The notes below the pieces were generated by a model, which saw only the letters and a list, made by a program, of their open reading frames with translations, did no database searches and was not told where the DNA came from. Positions 4,932-64,000 of a DNA stretch of 64,000 bases are shown in pieces (within the stretch, counting starts at the first letter, position 1; every line of letters begins with the position of its first letter). The stretch spans positions 56,606,001 through 56,670,000 of the forward strand of contig OZ024740.1 of the NCBI GenBank assembly GCA_964016885.1, written 5' to 3'. The position numbers and the translations under genes are program-made. Source of the DNA: Eledone cirrhosa. Taxonomy: Eukaryota.

Positions 4932-6000
4932 TAAAAGGAATTCCAACTTACTCGTTTTAGTTACAATCCTTTAACATTATAATGATATTATAATGAAATA
5001 GTATGGTAGAATATTAAATGTTAAATGTTAATTGAACAAGTACATTCATGCTTTCGCAATCATCAGGTTCATATTAGGTGGTGACAGTCAAGTTTGTAAT
5101 TTTCAACTGTAATAAGATGGGTAAAATCTGTGCCTCATATACAGTAAAAAGGGGCTACAGAATGCTAGGTTTTGCAAACTGTATTTCTACCAATCGGTGT
5201 GTAGTTTCACTAGATTACTAAAGCTGCAAATCAGAGACCCAATGTCCGTCAGATAAACCTGAGTAACCATCTAGCAACATGTGGTCAGAAAATATTTATA
5301 ATATTTCCATTCTACAAATTACACAGCCCAAGTGAAATCAAGAGAAAAATTAAAAAGAATTTTATTGATAAATTCCAACCCAAGCTAAATGAACAATAAT
5401 CATGCTTAGGGGTATTACTTCTACTATGACTACGCCTACGATCATGTCGACTACCACCACTAACAACAACAACAAAAATAATAATAAAAGTGATGTTGAT
5501 GTTGATGATTACTGAAGATTTTTTATAAAAACCCTAGAAAATGCTATTTTCATCATTTCTAAAAATAGCAAAACAATTGATGCTTTGGATAGGGTCAAAT
5601 AGAAGTCATTAGACATGCTCAACCAACCATGACGCCTAAACCAATCAGCTTTAGTAATCTAGTGAAACTACACACCGATTGGTCGAAATACAGTTTGCAA
5701 ACCTTAGCATTCTGTAGCCCCTTTTTATTTTTACTGTATATAAGGCACAGCATTTATCCATCTCATTACAGTTGAAAATTGAAAACTTGACTGTCACCAC
5801 TGAATATGAACCTGAAGATTGCGAAAGCATGAACGTACTTGTTCAATTAACACTTAACATTTAATATTCTGCCATACTATTTCATTATAATACCATTATA
5901 ATTTTAAAGGATTGCAAATAAAACGAGTAAATCAGACAAAGTTGGAATTCCTTTTATTAATATAATCTTCTATACACAATCATACACACCCGTGTATATT
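4931..6000 (+). mobile_element. 5'-truncated PLE (family A, Neptune-like) with inverted terminal repeat
   Basis: Arms 4931-5227 and 5647-5957; inner GIY-YIG C-terminus RQINLSNHLATCGQKIFIIFPFYKLHSPSEIKRKIKKNFIDKFQPKLNEQ*; mutated HHRs at 5033-5071(-) and 5807-5845(+); (TA)n on both sides. Clade is an inference. Confidence 0.8.
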
Positions 6001-12633: not shown

Positions 12634-15600
12634 AAAATTGAAAAAGTGGAGAATAACATGGTCAACAGTACAAAAAAGGGGATTTATTTGCAGTCTAACA
12701 ATTGTTTCACTGATAGAGTTGTCTAAAAATTGCTGAACACTAAAAGCAGTGCCACTCAATTTTAAATACGATGTTAACTCTATTAGATCTTCGGAAACTG
12801 TTAAAAAAATATATATGTACCCGACAAATTTACAAATTCAAATTACATGTTCAATAATAATATTAATAATAAAGATATAGAGAGAAAAGGAGGAAGAAAG
12901 GGAGATAGATACAGTAAAGAAAGAAAGGAAAGTAAGGAGAAAGAAGAAGGAAAAAGAAAAAAAAAGAGGAAGAAGAAGAAAAAGGAGAAATTATTATAGA
13001 TAGAAATATAAAGAGAAGAAGATATATAGAATATGATGGTAGATAGAGAAGTGACAAACATAAGTAGAAATAACGTAGGATAGAAAGAAGAATAGACGGA
13101 CAAATAAATGAATAAACGTTAATACATGAATAAATTTCAATAAAAATAAAAGTAGATATATAAAAAATATATGAAAAAATATATTTAAAAAATATATAAA
13201 AATTGATAAATAAATAAATAAATAAATAAGTTATATCTAATGTGATATAAAATGGTATAAAATGTGAAAAATGAAGAATAAAAATAAATACGTAAAAGGA
13301 GTAAAAAGAATAAAAATGTGCGAAGAATATTTAAATATATTAAAATTATTAACAATGGTTTTTGAGAATTGTTGAAATATAAGGAGAGATAATAAGGTGA
13401 AAATATGATAATGTTAAATATATTTATGTGTGTATTGGTTATTTTAATAAATAAATTAATTAATTAGTTTTAAGTTATATTATATGATAAAATAAAATGA
13501 CAGAGATGAAATAAATTTAGGGAGAGAAATATAAAGATAAAGAGTGAAAAATAGAGATATATAAAATAAGAATGTAAATATAAGAGGTTTTGATGTTGTT
13601 CTTTGATAGATGATGGCAATTATAATTATAATTATAATTATAATGATGATGATGTTGATAATGTGATATCATAATAGATCCAAGTGGTACAATCTGGGTT
13701 ATGGAATAGATGAGATAGAATTAAGCTGGTCTAAAGTTCTCAAATTTAGTCGCCGATTTATGTCGACAAAAAATAGTTTTTTCAATTTTACTGTTAAGAA
13801 GAATTTTGTTGTAATTTAAAATTTGGAAAAGCTCCATATTACAGAGACCACAGTAGGACATACCAATTTGATATGCCTTTGCTTTTAATACCTTTGTCCA
13901 GCTGATTTTATATTCCATGTTTGCATCTTTGAGTTGCCAGATTTTATTGGCGAGAGTCGTTGTCTTTGAGAGATTCCTGTTAGTCATAGAGCGTCTTTGT
14001 ACGTACCACCTTTTCTTAAACTCCCCAGCTGTGGAACCAATGTAATGTCATGCTAAGCTACCTGAATTTATAGTACATAGGTATACTATATTTGTCTCTA
14101 GGCATCTGTTTTGCAATGGGCATTTGTCAGATAGATGGCAGTTACATTTAGATGCTTTTCTATGCGCCGGTTCTTCTATATGGTTTTGTAGGTTTGCTAT
14201 GTATGGGCTGAGAATTGGGTTTATTGATGTATTGTGGTGATGTGCTCTGATGTGTTTGGTAGTGATGATGTTATATGCTTATGTTTTGTATTAGGTGTTA
14301 TGGTACTTATTTGCGGGCCACTTATAATATAGATTATTTTATAGTTAATTTTATGTATGTGTTTTATTTATTTAATATATTTTATATATTCTTTGATAGA
14401 TAATTTTATCTATAATACAAATGAATACAAATGAAAAAACTATTTTTTGTCGACATAAATCGGCGACTAAATTTGAGAACTTTAGACCAGCTTAATTCCA
14501 TCTTATCTATTCCATAACCCAGATTGTACCACTTGGATCTATTATGATATCACATTATCAACATCATCATCATTATAATTATAATTATAATTATAATTGT
14601 CATCATCTATCAAAGAACAACATCAAAACCTCTTATATTTACATTCTTATTTTATATATCTCTATTTTTCACTCTTTATCTTTATATTTCTCTCCCTAAA
14701 TTTATTTCATCTCTATGATTTGATTTTATCATATAATATAACTTAAAACTAATTAATTTATTTATTTATTAAAATAACCAATACACACATAAATATATTT
14801 AACATTATCATATTTTCACCTTATTATCTCTCCATATATTTCAACAATTCTCAAAAACCATTCTTAATAATTTTAATATGTTTAAATATTCTTCGCACAT
14901 TTTTACTCTTTTTGCTCCTTTTACGTATTTATTTTTATTCTTCATTTTTCACATTTTATACCATTTTATATCACATTAGATATAACTTATTTATTTATTT
15001 ATTTATCAATTTTTATATATTTTTAAATATATTTTTTCATATATTTTTTATATATCTACTTTTATTTTTATTGAAATTTATTCATGTATTAACGTTTATT
15101 CATTTATTTGTCCGTCTATTCTTCTTTCTATCCTACGTTATTTCTACTTATGTTTGTCTCTTCTCTATCTACCATCATATTCTATATATCTTCTCTTTAT
15201 ATTTCTATCTATAATAATTTCTCCTTTTTCTTCTTCTTTCTCTATTACTTTTTCTTTTTCCTTCTTCTTTCTCCTTCCTTTCCTTTCTTTCTTTACTGTA
15301 TCTATCTCCCATTTTTCCTCCTTTTCTCTCTATATCTTTATTATTAATATTATTATTGATGATGAAATTTGAATTTGTAAATTTGCCGGTTACATATATA
15401 TTCTTTTAACAGTTTCCTAAGATCTAATAGAGTTAACATCGTATTTAAAATTGAGTGGCACTGCTTTTAGTGTTCAGCAATTTTAAAACAACTTTATCAG
15501 TGAAACAATTGTTAGACTGCAAATAAAACCCCTTTTGTGTACTATTGACCATGTTGTTCTCCACTTTATCAATGTTATTACTCCAAGATAAACTTACATA

Positions 15601-15735
15601 GGAATACAAGTGAAATCATAAACTCGTCATCTACGTAAACCTCTTGTTGAGTCAGGCATCGCCGTACACTAAAACTATCCATAATAAGAAGTATTCACAA
15701 CCCTAATTATAACGATATTTTGTTATCCTTTATTT
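12634..15735 (-). mobile_element. 5'-truncated PLE (family B, Naiad-like GIY-YIG) with ~1.15-kb inverted arms
   Basis: Arms 12634-13783 and 14433-15573, right arm with a ~160-bp tail; minus frame ASKCNCHLSDKCPLQNRCLETNIVYLC..*HYIGST...IWQLK...CGLCNME...CRH; (TA)n at both ends. Confidence 0.85.
12691..12800 (-). ncRNA. Variant hammerhead (U4C core, long stem II)
   Basis: CAGTTT-CCGAAGA-t..ATAGAGTT[insert]AACTCTAT..t-GAAA-CAATTG-TT-AGACTG; mirror copy 15410-15519(+) has a further-mutated core CCTAAGA. Confidence 0.6.
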
Positions 15736-16049: not shown

Positions 16050-16097
<48 letters not shown>

Positions 16098-16220
16098 GGA
16101 GGTGAGTTTTATTGTAGTACAATAAAGCAATGCAGATATCGGATAAGAAGCACTCTACAGTTTGTGGGACTGGAGTATGCATAATATAAGATCAAAAGAT
16201 GGTTAAAGGAGTTCCATATA

Positions 16221-16287
16221 TTTTATTATGCGCATTTCAAAAACAAACATCATCAAGCAATAATATTTGTGTTTTCATCAGATAAAA
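16221..16287 (-). ncRNA. Type I hammerhead (family C, left arm)
   Basis: Reverse complement of 19394-19460. Confidence 0.82.
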
Positions 16288-17531
16288 CAGGAGAACATGA
16301 TATGAAGGCTAAAAAACACTTGTTGATAGTGCAGTTTTAAATCAACATATGAAAAGTGGTTTTAGATTGATGTGTGATATTGGGAAAAATATTTTATTTA
16401 GAGAGGGGGGGGGGAAGGATGAAAAGGGAAGGAGATGAGAGGGAGAGATGGGTGATAGAGAGAAAGAGATAGTTTTTATAACTGAGAGGAGATATATTTT
16501 TTACATAGAGGGGTTGAAAACCGTTGGAAGATACTGTATAAATTAAAAATTTTGAAAATTAACGAAGGGAGGATATGTGCGAGGAAAAAATATTTTATTT
16601 AGGGAGGGGGGGTGTGGAAAGGATGAAAAAAAGGGGGGAGGAGATGAGAGTGAAGGTGGGGAGGGAGAGATTGGTGATAGAGAGAAAGAGATAGTTTTTA
16701 TAACTGAGAAAAAGATATATTGTTTTAATATAGAGAGGTTGGGAACCGTTGGAAGATAATGTATAAATTAAAGGAATTTGAAAATTAACGAAGGGAAATT
16801 ATGTATGAAGATAGAGAGAAAAAATAATAATTGTGGGTGAATATTCTAACGTCAAAAGAAGAAATGTATGTATTGTGGCAATTTCAAAATTAGCGAAGAG
16901 AAAAGTTGTTATGGTTTGTGTGTAGAAGGATTTGAGAAAAATAATGTGAAGTTAAAGTTTGTATATTGAATAGATATGTATTAATAATGAGTTCGTTGAT
17001 GGGGAGAAAAAAATAATAATAAATTAAGGATGAAATTGAGATTAAAAAGATTTATGATAGAGAGAAAAAATAATAATGATTGCGGATGAATATTCAAAAT
17101 GTCAAAAACAAATGTTATTATTTTACGAGAAGATAGAATGAGGGTAATGAGTAAACGAGTATTATAGAGTGTATAATGCCCTTTAAAGTAAGGTAAGGTA
17201 GATGGGTATATTTTAAAGAGGTGTATGTATATGTGCCTTTGAGAAAAGATTCTAAATTGATAAAGAATTGAATATTAACTGTATACTTTGTGAAAAGTTC
17301 TATGGAATTTATGCAGGCAGATAGAAAACAAATCTGAGCGTCTATTTATTATAGATTCTAGGTTAGAGATAATGGTAAATTTTTCATTTAGGCAGAGATT
17401 ACAGATTTTAGATAGAGAGCTGTTCAAGTATGAGGATGCAGAAGAAATCTTTTTCCAAAAGATGTTATATTTAATGTTTTTTGTCTTTTAAGGACCATAT
17501 GAGTTCTTGATATTGGTAGGATGGTTAGATT

Positions 17532-18614
17532 TACCATAAAAACAATGAGAATCTTAATTATGTTAACTTTAAATCTAACCATCCTACCAATATCAAGAAT
17601 GCTATAGTTAATAATATTGGAAATAGAATATCTAACATATCTTCTAATAAAAACATCTTTGATGCTAACGCAAATTACTATAATAACGCACTTTCTAAAG
17701 CCGGCTATCCAGATAAAATCAAATATAATAAAGAAACAAATTCTAGGAAAACTTACAGTAGAATAATTAATCATGACCATTCCAATAATTTTAATAAAAG
17801 ACCTAGATACAAAAACATAATCTGGTATAATGCTTCTTTCTCCATCTCTATTAATAACAATATTCCTAAATTATTTTTTAGTGCCTTAAATAAATGCTTC
17901 CCTCCCTCACATATCTATAGTAAAATATTTAACAAACATACCATCAAATTTTCGTATTCTACATCCTCCAATATTTCCAACATCATCTCTAAACACAACA
18001 ACAAAATATTAAATACTAAATCTCTTCCTTCCAATATCGAATTTCATAATAACAGTAATAGTACTCCCGACGTCATTGTAAACCCTAGGCTAACTTCTGT
18101 AAACCCAAATACAACGTCAAACACAACTTCGCTAAATGTTCATAATCCAACTCTAAATCAAGAAACTATTATTCCTATTATTCCTATCGCAAACAACTTC
18201 TCCAATCCAATTCCTTCTATAGATAACACTAGATCACTCATAAATAATCTCTCTAATTGCAACTGCCGCATCAAAAATAAATGTCCTCTCAACAACCATT
18301 GCCTCGATAAAAACTTAATTTATGAATGTAAAATTATAACTAGCACCAATTCCTTCACCTGTTTTGGCTCCACTTCCACCTCTTTTAAAGCTCGTCTCTA
18401 TAATCATCATTCATCTTTCAAATACAAACTTAAAAGAACTAACACTGCTCTCTCAGAACTCATATGGTCCTTAAAAGACAAAAACATTAAATATAACATC
18501 TTTTGGAAAAAGATTTCTTCTGCATCCTCATACTTGAACAGCTCTCTATCTAAAATCTGTAATCTCTGCCTAAATGAACAATTTACCATTATCTCTAACC
18601 TAGAATCTCTCTAA
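17532..18614 (+). pseudogene. PLE ORF fragment: RT thumb, Cys linker and GIY-YIG (360 open codons, no Met)
   Basis: YHKNNENLNYVNFKSNHP...IIWYNASFS...KIFNKHTIKFSYS...CNCRIKNKCPLNNHCLDKNLIYEC...FGSTSTSFKARLYNH...IWSLK...CNLCLNE; missed by the ORF track. Confidence 0.88.
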
Positions 18615-19393
18615 CCTAGAATCTCTCTATCATAAATCTTTTTAATCTCAATTTCATCCTTAATTTATTATTATTTTTTTCTCCCCATCAACGAACTCAT
18701 TATTAATACATATCTATTCAATATACAAACTTTAACTTCACATTATTTTTCTCAAATCCTTCTACACACAAACCATAACAACTTTTCTCTTCGCTAATTT
18801 TGAAATTGCCACAATACATACATTTCTTCTTTTGACGTTAGAATATTCACCCACAATTATTATTTTTTCTCTCTATCTTCATACATAATTTCCCTTCGTT
18901 AATTTTCAAATTCCTTTAATTTATACATTATCTTCCAACGGTTCCCAACCTCTCTATATTAAAACAATATATCTTTTTCTCAGTTATAAAAACTATCTCT
19001 TTCTCTCTATCACCCATCTCTCCCTCCCCACCTTCACTCTCATCTCCTCCCCCCTTCTTTTCAACCTTTCCACCCCCCCTCCCTAAATAAAATATTTTTT
19101 CCTCGCACATATCCTCCCTTCGTTAATCTTCAAAATTTTTAATTTATACAGTATCTTCCAACGGTTTTCAACCCCTCTATGTAAAAAATATATCTCCTCT
19201 CAGTTATAAAAACTATCTCTTTCTCTCTATCACCCATCTCTCCCTCTCATCTCCTTCCCTTTTCATCCTCCCCCCCTCTCTAAATAAAATATTTTTCCCA
19301 ATATCACACATCAATCTAAAACCACTTTTCATATGTTGATTTAAAACTGCACTATCAACAAGTGTTTTTTAGCCTTCATATCATGTTCTCCTG

Positions 19394-19460
19394 TTTTATC
19401 TGATGAAAACACAAATATTATTGCTTGATGATGTTTGTTTTTGAAATGCGCATAATAAAA
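19394..19460 (+). ncRNA. Type I hammerhead (family C)
   Basis: TTTTAT-CTGATGA-AAAcACAAATAT...ATGTTTGTTTTt-GAAA-TGCGCA-TA-ATAAAA; palindromic stem III; AUA site. Confidence 0.85.
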
Positions 19461-19497
19461 TATATGGAACTCCTTTAACCATCTTTTGATCTTATAT

Positions 19498-19570
<73 letters not shown>

Positions 19571-23046: not shown

Positions 23047-25109
23047 ATGTATGTATGTATGTATGTATGTATGTATGTATGTATGTATGCACGAAGGCCT
23101 GCATGTTTACACGTCTCCCCCTCTCTCACCCTCTCTCTCTCTATATATATATATATAGTACTTTAGGAGGGTCAAGCTGCCAATAACGCAGTATATATGT
23201 ATATGTATGCATGCATGTACGTATGTGTGTATGTATATATGCATGCATATATTTCTCTGTATGTGCATATATATATATGTGAGTGAGTGTGTGTATGCAC
23301 GTAATATACGTATGCATGTATGTATCAATAAATTACTTCAATGCCCGTACATTTTGTTCCATAGCCAAGTACAGTGCTTTTGATGCGTGCGTTTTTGTTC
23401 ATTTTGACTTTTGTTGTTTAGCCCTAAACCAATCCGCTCTTTTTAGGGCATACCATGTCTAGAACGATATTATCTGATCTTTTTTTTCGCATTTGAGAGC
23501 GATTTCGCTGCTAGTCACTTCAGGTTGAATGACCGTCTTTTTCCACGGAGGAATATCGTATTTCTATTTTTTTTATTATTATTTACATTGTTTTTGTTGC
23601 AAGTATTTCCTTTGATACCGTTATTATATTGTTTGTTTGTTTTTGTTTTGTTGACAGTAATATTGTTTCCTTTGTCAATACATTCTCGTTGCTCGCTTCA
23701 TTGATTATGCTTCAGTTGAATTCATCATGGGAAATAAGTCAATTTTCGAACATGAATGAGATAGCTAATATCATTGAATTTGTGCAACGCTATATTAGCA
23801 TAACATTTGATGTTAATTCCAACTCCTTTCTAAGTCATGTATTAGCATTAATATAATTCCCTTAGAATCATTTAGGTAAAGCTACCACGCATAACCACCT
23901 GTATTATTATAGAACACACCCTAAAAATTCACGTTTACTGATTTTCATTTTGTATTTTAAAATAAAATTCTTCAGATGTAAAATCAGTGACGTTTGTAAC
24001 CCCCCCCCCAAAAAAAAATACTCAAATTTATTGTCGCAGAATTTGGATTTTAACTGATATATTCTTTCAATAAATTAAAAGTCATAAATTTGAAGAAAAA
24101 ACAACAATAACTGGCTAATTGGAGGTTATGGTAGAAGGTATCAAATAATATATTGTCTTGTCATATCCCGAGGAGATCAATATTAGGATTTTAAGCAGTT
24201 AAACCACACGATACATAACTATTTGTCTAATTTCTTGTTGTAACAAGTGTAACGTAAACTCCAAGACGGTAAAAAAATTAGATGAAGGTAAGAGATAATA
24301 CTAAAAGGAGCTGTGAATGTATTTGAATTTATGATGCAGTAACCGAATTGTCAATGAAGTATCGAGGAAGAATTCATTGTGACAGTTTGCATTATTAATA
24401 TATTAAAGAAAAACAAGCTTTCTTTATTATATAGAGCGTTAATGAACCTAATATATTTATGAAGTAGATCACTAGAATATATATTTCATTTGTGCAATAG
24501 ATTCTTTTGAAGTCATTAGAATACATTCAGCTTCAAAAGGAAAGAAAACATACTGTAATGAATTGTTGAATAGATTGCTTACCAGACATTCCATCCTTGA
24601 CCACCCAGTATTTATGAATATCCAGGATCAGATTATACTTTTTAAAGGCAATCATGATCTTATAGATAATTGACTGCTGTTTCTAGCAAGATAAGCGATG
24701 CCTGTTAAACAGATTAGTATCTTATACTAATGAAGCAAACTTCATAATATATTTTGGTATTGCAAACCTGTTAGAGGAGATCAGTGGGTCTCAACCTTTT
24801 TTATCTATGGACCCCGTTGATTCCTATTTTACTCTAGTAACCCCATAGCTATTCGATTTTTAAGGAATATTAGGAATTGAATAAAAATTGTTAACAAATC
24901 TTATGCATTGTAAAAGTATAACCGATTTAGCAATGTACGAAATTTTATAGAAAATAGTTATATTCAAAAATATATATATATCGAGAGTCGATATACAAGA
25001 TTCCAAACCCCATATGCTATATGAGAGGGGTGGAAGCCGTCAAATCGGACAGAGGAAACAATGTTTTACATTGGTCTTTCCAATGGTTAATACTATATGT
25101 CGGTCGCAA

Positions 25110-25305: not shown

Positions 25306-25731
25306 TGTAGGAGGTGAGTTTTATTGTAGTACAATAAAGCAATGCAGATATCGGATAATAAGCACTCTACAGTTTGTAGGACTGGAGTATACATAATATA
25401 TAAGAACAAAAGATGGTTAAAAGAGTTCCATGTATTTTATTATGCGCATTTCAAAAACAAATATCATCATGCAATAATATTTGTGTTTTCATCAGATAAA
25501 ACATGAAGACATGATATGAAGGTTAAAAAACACTTGTGGATAGTTCAGTTTTAAATCAACATATTTATTTAAAACTGAACTATCCACAAGTGTTTTTTAA
25601 CCTTCATATCATGTCTTCATGTTTTATCTGATGAAAACACAAATATTATTGCATGATGATATTTGTTTTTGAAATGCGCATAATAAAACACATGGAACTC
25701 TTTTAACCATCTTTTGTTCTTATATATTATG

Positions 25732-25735
<4 letters not shown>
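25306..25735. mobile_element. Short palindrome of the family C terminus with two HHRs (25435-25501 minus; 25620-25690 plus)
   Basis: Arms about 25388-25554 and 25568-25734; left arm carries the same tail as 16094-16180; + HHR TGTTTTAT-CTGATGA...GAAA-TGCGCA-TA-ATAAAACA. Confidence 0.88.
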
Positions 25736-26942
<1,207 letters not shown>

Positions 26943-26976
26943 GAATGAAAAACCACAGACCCTCCATCTCAACTCA

Positions 26977-27014
26977 CCTTTTGAAAAGCAGAAGAACTGC
27001 GAAACCGGTAAAGG
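26977..27014 (+). ncRNA. Minimal hammerhead with U3:A8 core (family D copy 26945-27151)
   Basis: CCTT-TTGAAAA-GCAGaagaaCTGC-GAAA-CCGG-TA-AAGG; GUA site. Confidence 0.78.
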
Positions 27015-27281
27015 AACCAAATAAATATATATATTTTTAAAAAAAATAAGACTCCAGTTGCATTTTCGATTTCATCTCTTTTTCTTTATACTTTCACTCG
27101 CGTAGGACACCTCGGTTATTTTTCATTTTGTAAAAAATACCTCACTTTCTAATATATATGTATATATATATATATATGAATATATATATATATGTATATA
27201 TATATATATGTATATATATATGGATATATATATATGTATATATATGTATATATATATGTATATATATATATATGTATATTT

Positions 27282-27558
27282 AAGAAATAGGATTTCGCTT
27301 CAAGCATAGCTTTATACAATATGTATAGAAATTTCGTATTTCGAAAGAAATACGACTTTAGGAAGCTGTAGCTATGGTGATGTCCAGCAGAAACTAGAGG
27401 GACAACCGTCTATGCATTTTAAGCTGCCTGAAATGCATAGACGGTTGTCCCTCTTGATTCTGATAGACAACACCAGACGGCGTTAGATACCCCGGTGTTC
27501 GCATAGCTACAGCTTCCTAAAATCGTATTTCTTTCGAAATACGAAATTTCTATACATA
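27282..27558. repeat. Fold-back element between (TA)n arrays
   Basis: atgtatagaaatttcgtatttcgaaag...gacaaccgtctatgcattt versus its reverse complement; left-arm tail. Confidence 0.8.
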
Positions 27559-27686
27559 TCTATATATATATATGTATATGTATATATATATATATGTATA
27601 TATATGGATATATATATATATGTATATATATGTATATATATGTATATATATGGATATATATATATATGTATATATATATGTATATA

Positions 27687-27731
<45 letters not shown>

Positions 27732-27736
27732 GTATA

Positions 27737-27781
<45 letters not shown>

Positions 27782-27938
27782 GTATATATATGTATATATA
27801 TATGTATATATATATGTATATATATATGTATATATATATGTATATATATATATGTATATATATATGTATATATATATGTATATATATATGTATATATATA
27901 TGTATATATATATGTATATATATATGTATATATATATG

Positions 27939-30385
<2,447 letters not shown>

Positions 30386-30391
<6 letters not shown>

Positions 30392-31129
30392 TATTTATAG
30401 GAATAATTGATAAAATATACCTATTTATTTCTTTTGTCCCGACTGTACAGTTTCGCTGGTCACTATGCAAGAATGTTATATCATAGATATGTAACATTGT
30501 TGTGAGGTAAGCCAGCTTATCAAGGGACCACCTCAGGGAAGAGCCCTAACTACATACGTCCGTAGCATGCGAGAAAATCTCAGAAAGGCGGAGGGAGACT
30601 CTATCACGTGATGCACCGGTCAAGAAAGGGGATTAATCTCTTGTAGCAATGAAAATATCTCAGAAGGCGGAGGGATATATTGATATGTTACATAGGCTAC
30701 AGAGGGGTGGAAAGGTTGACTAGAAGTGTATATAGTGTTTGCTTGAAAGCAGTCACTATACTTCCGTGGTTACTCTACCGTGAGGGAGTTAGAGACAATA
30801 ATGAGAGGTATACAAATATATGTATATACATACATATACATGTATATATAAACATATATTTTTCACAAGTATGTGAGATTGTATGTTGTCGACCTTAACC
30901 AGTGTTACTCTATGACTATGAGAGACAAAATAATCGAAATAATTAAATTGACACAATATCAGAGTTATGTAAAATATTATAAAAAGGAATAATAGATACA
31001 ATATACAATCATAGAGTAACACTGGTTAAGGTCGACAACATACAATCTCACATACTTGTGAAAAATATATGTTTATATATACATGTATATGTATGTATAC
31101 ACATATATTTGTATACCTCTCATTATTGT
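30386..31129 (-). mobile_element. Family R-related non-coding HHR element with terminal fold-back (30795-30915 / 31009-31129)
   Basis: Shares aaggcggaggg..atcacg.gat..cggtc.agaaa with 57770-57815; U3:A8 HHR at 30436-30528. Confidence 0.75.
30436..30528 (-). ncRNA. Hammerhead with U3:A8 core
   Basis: Minus: GTCCC-TTGATAA-GCTGG...CCAGC-GAAA-CTGTACAG-TC-GGGAC. Confidence 0.82.
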
Positions 31130-31145
31130 ATATATATATATATAT

Positions 31146-31229
31146 ATTTCGTTTCTGAATTTGTTTAGCAAGATTCTTTATCTGAAATCGTGTTATTGGC
31201 AACATGACCCTCCCAAAGTATAACAATAT
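31146..31229. mobile_element. 84-bp inverted, rearranged insertion of the family E 3' end
   Basis: 31146-31193 is the reverse complement of 56663-56710; 31194-31229 equals 56617-56652. Confidence 0.85.
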
Positions 31230-31363
31230 ATATATATATATATTTAAAAAAAAAAAAAAAAAAAAAAGACTTCAGTTGCATTTTCGATTTCATCTCTTTT
31301 TCTTTATACTTTCACTCGTGTAGGACACCTCGGTTATTTTTCATTTTGTAAAAAAAACCTCAC

Positions 31364-31485
<122 letters not shown>

Positions 31486-62567: not shown

Positions 62568-64000
62568 AAAAAAATTACCGCCCAATTGCCTGCCAAAACA
62601 TCATGTATAAATTATATACTGGGTGCCTTAACCTGTTCTTACAGGATCACTGTGCTACCAACAACATCATAACACCTGAGCAAGCTGGTGGAAAGAGGGA
62701 GGTGTGGGGTTGCATAGATCACCTACTAACTAACAAAATGATTCAGGAAAAAACAACAAAGAATCGCATAAACATGACTGTGGTGTAGCTGGACTATCAA
62801 AAAGCATTTGATAGTGTACATCATGGGTGGGATTATTAAGGCTTTACAGTTAGCTAAAGTCCCACAACCATTGGTAGCTGCTGTTGAACGCCTGACTAAG
62901 AACTGGTACACCAATTTGATCCTTAGAGGTGAGAAGGAGCAGGTTAAGACTGATAAGATACATTACCAGAAGGGCATCTTTCAGGGTGATAGCTTGTCAG
63001 TGCTACTCTTCGTTCTCTCACTGAATCTACTATCTTACCTACTGAGGAAACAAGGTGGACAAAGAAGTGGGCCCAGAAGTATCTCCCATCTTTTCTTTGT
63101 TGATGACCTGAAGTTGTATGGGCCAAATATCAATGACATCAAGAAACAATTGGACCTCATTACACAATTTTCAACCAACATCAAAATGAAATTTGGTGAG
63201 TCCAAGTGTGCATATTTGGCAGTAAAACGTGGAAGAGCTGTGCCCTCCTCTAGAAATCTAGATATGAACAGCCTGACAATACAACCTCTGCAGTCAGGTG
63301 ACAACTACAGATATCTTGGACAGGATGAGAATGTCAGATATGATGGACCCATAAATAAGGAGAGAACCAGAACTGAATACCTCAGAAGAGTAAAGAAAAT
63401 ATGGTCATCAGAACTGTCAGCATACAACAAATACATTGCCCACAACACTTATGCTGTGCCAATTCTAACGCCAACATTTGGCCTGCTGAACTGGTCATTG
63501 AAAGAACTAAGTGAGATGGATGTTAGAACTCGAAAACTTCTCAGTGTTACTGGGAACTTTAACATCAATGGTGATGTGGATAGGCTATACTTCTCACGCA
63601 AGGAAGGTGGCCGGGGTCTAAAATCAATATTAACAACATATGAGACCCGGATAGTAACACTGAAGCAACACCTTCAACAGAGGAAAAAGGTTGGCAACCA
63701 TCTTGCCCAGGTTTATGAGCATGAAAAAAAAATATCATTAGAATAGCGACTGATCTGGAGGAGAGATATGGAATAAAGCCTGATATAAATCTCTCACCCA
63801 GAGAAATCGGAAGATCCTATTCAATGTTCAAACAAGATAAAAAAATTGACCAATTTACAGAAAAAGTTGTGCATGGATACTTGAGGCGTAAAACACAGAC
63901 CATAGAGGGGATAAACCACTCAAAAAGCTTGGCATGGAATTCCGACAAGTTTATGACATCACACCTTGGGGGATATCTCTATGCAATACAGGAACAAGAA
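62568..64000 (+). mobile_element. 5'-truncated R4/Dong-like (RLE-type) LINE RT, disrupted; runs off the window
   Basis: NYRPIAC, EQAGG, LDYQKAFDSV, GIFQGDSLS, SHLFFVDDLKLY, FGESKCA, YRYLG, RLYFSRKEGGRGL; stops and frameshifts. Confidence 0.9.

Follow-up and report, generated by a model that had tools for sequence, protein, structure and literature searches.

The 84-bp insertion at positions 31146–31229 of the window (the whole stretch of 64,000 nucleotides of Eledone cirrhosa DNA that was analysed) was confirmed as a real insertion of two pieces, and it represents the known inverted-pLTR/tail structure of Penelope-like elements (PLEs) in a non-overlapping miniature form: most of the tail is present in inverted orientation and is joined to a tail-less pLTR end. 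It was probably made by both ends of the cut target, each priming at one of the two start sites of the element. The tails, the head-to-head repeats and the two RT start sites with extension of both strands are all already published. We found no publication that applies twin priming to PLEs; older work (Evgen'ev & Arkhipova 2005, and Arkhipova 2006) may hold the idea, and the portions available of PMC13282606, PMC9977147, PMC8969392 and bioRxiv 10.64898/2026.07.22.740005 contain nothing on a link between the two. The preliminary description had recognised the twin-priming signature known from L1, and its geometry stands, while the published tail and inverted-pLTR structure of PLEs had been overlooked.

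The left piece of the insert (piece C, 31146–31193, minus strand) consists of the distal 46–48 nt of the family-E1 tail, inverted so that its 3' end rests on the TA run to the left, and is the reverse complement of positions 56663–56710 of the parent element (48/48 by exact matching; BLAST E 1.4e-19). The right piece (piece B, 31193–31229, plus strand) contains the pLTR end and the first 7–8 ORF codons, stopping at an internal tail-less site between ACA and ATAT, and is identical to parent positions 56616–56652 (37/37 by exact matching; BLAST E 1.3e-13). The two pieces meet head to head at 31193 with a 1-nt overlap (a T common to both) and no TA repeat, and the 10 parent bases at 56653–56662 (CGGTTTCAAC) are absent from the insert. 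Because the ATAT at 56649–56652 could be target-derived, the gap between the pieces amounts to 10–14 nt. The insert is flanked by (TA)n target runs of 19 nt on the left (31129–31147), which is common to the tail-less end of the adjoining palindromic unit 30386–31128, and of 18 nt on the right (31226–31243), leaving a unique core of 78 nt (31148–31225) that is reproduced exactly by a two-piece join with 1-nt overlap. A target-site duplication is unreadable between these 19- and 18-nt runs since the target itself is (TA)n. Thus, the layout originally proposed, an inverted distal piece joined to an upstream piece with 10 nt lost and (TA)n on both sides, was borne out by the exact matches, and the geometry agrees with that of twin priming, with two opposite cDNAs whose 3' ends would point outward on (TA)n and whose 5' ends would be joined across the 10–14 nt gap. 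RNA folding of the insert and of two tail regions yielded z values of −0.2 to +1.2, which is not above shuffled sequences and therefore does not indicate an RNA gene at this site.

Both pieces were assigned to subfamily E1, from which they showed 0/54 and 1/41 aligned differences (the single one lying in the flanking TA), compared to 12/53 and 5/41 from subfamily E2. Their apparent common origin from E1 fits with either one RNA or two RNAs in a dimeric RNP. It is very improbable that the insert arose by two separate insertions, that piece B was inverted at a later time, or that the structure is an assembly or amplification chimera. The surrounding TA tract (25307–31469) is indeed a hotspot with seven inserts, but pieces B and C have no TA between them, both derive from E1 among at least eight families, they lie next to each other in the parent, and their two outer ends coincide with the end peaks of family E described below, which an inversion or a chimera would not respect. 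The same tract is a landing pad for TA-targeting elements, its seven inserts belonging to five families (B, D, F, E2, H, E1, D). The family-D copy adjoining the insert (31244–31369) starts at the internal (AT)n run of family D itself, as expected if pairing with the target had caused the 5' truncation.

The parent element is a 5'-truncated, Neptune-like PLE of subfamily E1 (54644–56709, plus strand), which comprises an RT, a linker, an endonuclease, a 3' UTR and a tail and extends over 2 kb without an inverted arm. Its RT frame (54647–55585) contains a YVDD motif, one stop and one frameshift, and matched Pfam RVT_1 with an E value of 2e-4, which is under the curated cut-off. The search for related proteins gave 38 longer homologs, the best of them an RT-domain protein of Octopus vulgaris with 70% identity; Pfam searches with four homologs were uninformative. 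The C-terminal GIY-YIG endonuclease (55804–56253) was read from the translation by its motif VVY..C....C..YIGET..H..H (CCHH), using the motif definition given in PMC8557442, and Pfam gave no match for it. The preceding linker is of the type Cx4CxxC (CIDKKCITC), and the Neptune and Nematis clades are defined in the same source by a CX2-5CxxC linker ahead of a C-terminal endonuclease (PMC8557442). Judged by these motif definitions, the parent is a Neptune- or Nematis-like PLE. Its pLTR also contains a candidate minimal type I hammerhead-like motif (56453–56495, plus strand), which was recognised by a pattern scan (single match, at 56457) and by folding of the predicted helices I and II. It consists of a helix I of 4 bp, CUGAAGA, an unpaired G, a helix II of 5–6 bp, GAAA, a tiny helix III and UA, a layout that agrees with that described in PMC4209133. 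Rfam yielded no hammerhead match on the whole window or on 56400–56540; the Rfam matches in the window were mostly to microRNA models below threshold and fell on microsatellites and palindromes. The one-tailed units described below resemble MITEs and miRNA hairpins in annotation, and many of these sub-threshold microRNA matches are spurious. A separate non-LTR reverse transcriptase ORF fragment, presumably RTE-like, is present at 62781–63746 (Pfam RVT_1, E 2e-9).

What had been taken as the 3' end of the parent turned out to be the start of the next ORF, of which the first 27 codons are present (56627–56709, plus strand). The frame begins with an ATG at 56627 and stays open up to the TA array, and its last 57–61 nt or so represent the tail. 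The E2 copy keeps this frame (at 28282) and codes for a protein 73% identical to the 27-codon stretch of E1, and 10 of the 15 base differences between the two ORF starts are at third positions (p=0.009). The 27-codon peptide matched homolog P0020 at its N-terminus (p 0.001–0.002 against shuffles), the one of five N-termini tested that passed at 0.01; for two others, values of 0.014 and 0.035 were reached when the E2 peptide was used. A profile search recovered 16 proteins, eight of which are short predictions that share just this stretch and then largely diverge from each other, and one long protein examined among the matches was an unrelated repeat protein. The eight short proteins probably represent further copies of the terminus in genomic sequence and do not independently prove coding. 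An open frame of 29 codons starting with ATG and running to the TA array was also observed in both copies of the family-B tail (16095–16181 and 25307–25393, minus strand).

This position of the tail agrees with published PLE anatomy, in which the pLTR and the tail cover the first ORF codons (PMC3846280), and with in vitro data in which two internal RT start sites delimit the tail (PMC11167929). With an ORF start in place of the supposed 3' end, priming at the outer site does not require an RNA terminus. The earlier proposal that one of the two cDNAs was primed terminally is therefore unsupported: the outer site falls on codon 28, within the beginning of the ORF of the element itself, and corresponds to the published PLE tail. 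Priming of a terminal-like kind is still possible, since a read-through transcript of a source copy that continued into (UA)n would give a similar result.

The window contains six copies of the family-E ATG region (0.17 expected by chance) and three copies of the tail (0.19 expected by chance), which together provide seven outer ends at ORF positions +83, +83, +81 and +22, +22, +21, +18. All seven fall within two windows of 6 nt (p=0.0003 under a 100-nt uniform null). Since a source copy may have passed on the same end to several copies, identical ends were also collapsed, and all five distinct ends remained in both windows (p=0.012). The two breakpoint peaks that had been expected were thus found in the window, at ORF +18 to +22 and +81 to +83. 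The exact family-E pattern gave no matches in bacterial and archaeal genomes.

Besides the insert, the inner peak is represented by three pieces: a subfamily-E2 unit (28138–28362), in which a 36-nt inverted tail-less arm overlaps a 189-nt forward arm with a 60-nt tail; a 48-nt tail-less E2 piece (54545–54592, plus strand) that ends between ACA and ATAT; and a diverged tail-less fragment of 29 nt (23158–23186, minus strand) that ends at ORF +18. The preliminary description had noted that related copies share the inner stop of the insert. The common end peak agrees with this, but the arm at 28137 stops one base earlier (AAC, followed by the TA array), and the copy placed at about 54597 actually stops at 54592, where the ATAT is ambiguous. 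The four internally ended pieces of family E (23158–23186, 28138–28173, 31193–31225 and 54545–54592) are all short (29–48 nt) and stop 2–16 nt before a GTGTGTT motif that none of them crosses, so GTGTGTT is a possible RT block (n=4). The 5' end of the 48-nt E2 piece is fused without TA to an 847-nt segment (53698–54544) with (TA)n on its left side. If this segment were the arm of another element, the fusion would be a two-RNA chimera; its interpretation as a long inverted arm of the family-E ORF was unsupported by tblastn or by a profile built from the N-terminal halves of 15 homologs.

These short pieces bear on whether the insert might be what is left of an ordinary overlapping one-tailed palindrome after a single asymmetric deletion had removed its centre, in which case the non-overlap would tell nothing about the insertion reaction. 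We regard this as fairly unlikely. Palindromes are prone to deletion, one arm of the unit at 16095–19502 has undergone a jump or deletion of 855 nt at a microhomology of 4 nt, and all 11 other two-armed units of the window overlap. Against this, three other internally ended E pieces are just as short (29, 36 and 48 nt), two of them without a recognisable partner arm, so short inner pieces need no deletion. Moreover, the join has just 1 nt of microhomology, and all 84 nt are identical to the parent, so the insert should be fairly young, an identity that bounds the divergence only below about 3.5%.

The same layout recurs in other families of the window. Of 18 dissected intervals, 11 are two-armed units flanked by TA, and seven were dropped because they lack this organisation (19837, 58400, 48560, 57273, 2600, 8100 and 17300, the last a sub-part of 16095). 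All 11 units are one-tailed, one arm ending at most 2 nt from the array and the other being extended by a tail of about 41–166 nt, with one uncertain value of 410 nt. The orientation with 3' ends outward was fixed by ORF remnants in four of the eight families (E, A, B and C) and assumed for the other four; for family A it relies on a segment at 5227–5645 that we take to be the endonuclease C-terminus from its motif. Families B and C are Hydra-type elements with a CxCx5C linker. The suggestion that the larger palindromes are products of the same reaction is thus matched by the one-tailed layout in these 11 of the 18 intervals, but the arms of the sister units overlap by 36–1150 nt. The units 16095–19502 and 12635–15734 are large one-tailed palindromes with remnants of Hydra-type PLE endonucleases, and their arms differ at 4/879 and 35/1146 positions, respectively. 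Two further inverted repeats (58483–58730 and 48600–48847) carry a central instead of an outer TA array, a layout unlike that of the one-tailed units.

Sequence words related to the target were found at the internal ends. Of 13 tail-less ends from eight families, 11 are followed in the parent by an alternating TA word of 3 nt or more, compared to 2.7 expected (p=1e-5) from an ascertainment-corrected null that lets the apparent junction slide, and taking one worst case per family still gave 6/8 (p=0.001). The anchors were hand-placed with a 1-nt slip allowed, and two of 15 ends were left out (23158, which has no parent of its own, and 43493, which is ambiguous). These figures, together with the inner end shared by related copies, agree with the proposed priming at an internal AU word.

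Further information came from the reach of the arms, which could be read in seven units. The tail arm extends further 5' in three of them (28138, 4929 and 25307), and both arms reach equally far in unit 1392. In the remaining three, the tail-less arm extends further, in unit 16095 by 36 nt or more of coding sequence that is in frame and in unit 12635 by 635 nt, while the arms of the insert share nothing, the only non-overlapping case. If a single tail-primed cDNA folded back on itself, the tail-less arm would have to lie within the tail arm, which these three of seven units contradict. Two primers account for all seven units in one step, but this is not decisive, because later central deletions can create spacers, and a hairpin combined with trimming at an AT word can produce the insert with one extra step.

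This latter route would involve a single strand (cDNA or antisense RNA) that reaches 56616, folds or jumps back at 56663 and copies the tail, after which its first part is trimmed at an internal AT word by the endonuclease or by repair. Self-priming on an antisense template has been proposed for head-to-head repeats (PMC3846280), and the tail has been ascribed to resolution by the endonuclease (PMC8557442). The hairpins of units 1392 and 25307 are nearly perfect at their centres, and an 8-bp inverted repeat in the parent (56606–56667, plus strand; CGTGTGTT at 56606–56613 and AACACACG at 56660–56667) lies at or adjoins both inner breakpoints of the insert. Such closeness was matched by 5–9% of random gap-type breakpoint pairs, and E2 retains seven of the eight pairs of the repeat through one one-sided change. 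The repeat was rejected as template of the junction, however, since the predicted product is 6 nt longer than the insert. A fold-back on 1 bp would be unstable. Given also the extra step of precise trimming and the identification of the tail boundaries as RT start sites (PMC11167929), we consider this route quite unlikely.

The microhomology that had been anticipated was not seen at the inner junction of the insert. The 1 nt found there is at chance level, at least 1 nt being reached by 48% of random joins, and the other centres are mixed. Unit 1392 has one untemplated extra base and no microhomology, unit 25307 a palindromic ATAT site, unit 16095 a microhomology of 4 nt, and unit 12635 one of about 4 nt together with a 10-nt duplication. 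The centre of unit 16095 (family B) contains a 30-nt inverted piece (17504–17533), which was reached by a jump or a deletion at the 4-nt microhomology TTCT, and the duplication at the centre junction of unit 12635 (family C) is direct (TACAAATGAA twice, 14416–14435).

Returning to priming from both target ends, we propose the following sequence of events. The endonuclease would nick both strands of the (TA)n target, an activity that was demonstrated in vitro for an anole PLE (PMC11167929). One of the 3' ends would then prime at the outer site, where family-E ends are found at ORF +81 to +83, and the other would pair over 4 nt with AUAU and prime at the inner site at ORF +22 to +26, where both the end position and the TA word are observed. 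The outer cDNA would halt after 46 nt, 10–14 nt before the inner site, and the inner cDNA after 33–37 nt, and repair would link the cDNA 3' ends, resulting in the 1-nt overlap present in the insert. If the outer cDNA ran on beyond the inner site, overlapping one-tailed palindromes would result, as they occur throughout the window. One PLE protein has been described to cut and extend both strands and to start at two internal RNA sites bounding the tail (PMC11167929). According to the text available of that study, no difference in start site was seen between strands, nor any primer–template homology; because of these two features, the use of one site by each target end is not a prediction of that study itself.

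More tentatively, and with some doubt, we suggest that twin priming may be the normal integration route of PLEs. A complex with two active sites would use both (TA)n ends and two programmed RNA sites, one of them a short AU word pairing with the target, and the tail, together with the head-to-head repeat and the bias for (TA)n, would then be one phenomenon across Neptune-like and Hydra-like clades. The insert would represent its minimal product, the second polymerase having stood in the way of the first on one and the same RNA. The origin of the inverted repeats and one-sided tails of PLEs was described as "still undefined" in PMC8557442, and priming from two ends would explain these long-puzzling inverted ends. 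Because non-overlapping arms cannot come from a simple fold-back, the insert is a useful case, being the kind of product that distinguishes two-ended priming from fold-back, although at a single locus. Microsatellite-rich genomes such as that of Eledone cirrhosa should hold many such copies, and therefore the question is countable.

Compared to the inverted pLTRs with optional tail described for Penelope and Adineta Pen2a (PMC3846280, PMC8557442), the insert shares the head-to-head inverted and 5'-truncated copy, the tail on one arm, the pLTR and tail extending over the first ORF codons, the AT-rich or (TA)n targets and a hammerhead in the pLTR, here a candidate motif. It differs in that the arms overlap in the described elements, whereas those of the insert do not, the whole insertion measuring 78–84 nt, and in the tail length of about 60 nt (41–166 nt in other families, with the one uncertain 410), compared to 30–40 nt in described PLEs. 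The anole Poseidon element PAc studied in vitro (PMC11167929) likewise has two RT start sites within the ORF start that bound the tail, an AT-rich target and both-strand cutting and extension, observed for PAc in vitro and proposed here. The available text on PAc reports no primer–template homology and leaves inverted copies undiscussed, whereas in the window the inner site carries a TA word of 3–5 nt at the 11 of 13 ends mentioned above, and the element studied here is Neptune-like.

The original model of L1 twin priming includes primer–RNA complementarity at the internal site and microhomology at the inner junction, and complementarity is represented at the inner site of the insert by ATAT. 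L1 twin priming also produces two opposite cDNAs joined at their 5' ends, with the inverted cDNA starting within 20 nt of the end of the other (46% of 287 inverted insertions with two cDNAs within 20 bp; PMC12016303), which compares to the gap of 10–14 nt observed here, and an L1 twin-priming intermediate is the subject of bioRxiv 10.1101/2024.12.14.628481. In contrast to L1, the insert has no poly(A), its outer end is at ORF codon 28 and not at a poly(A) end of the RNA, and its internal site is fixed per family, while those of L1 are spread along the element. The overlaps in the sister units (36–1150 nt) also differ from the median of 12 bp in L1 (PMC12016303), and the enzyme is a different one, a GIY-YIG endonuclease with a telomerase-like RT in PLEs. 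The insert therefore resembles L1 twin priming in how it works, without belonging to the products of the L1 type.
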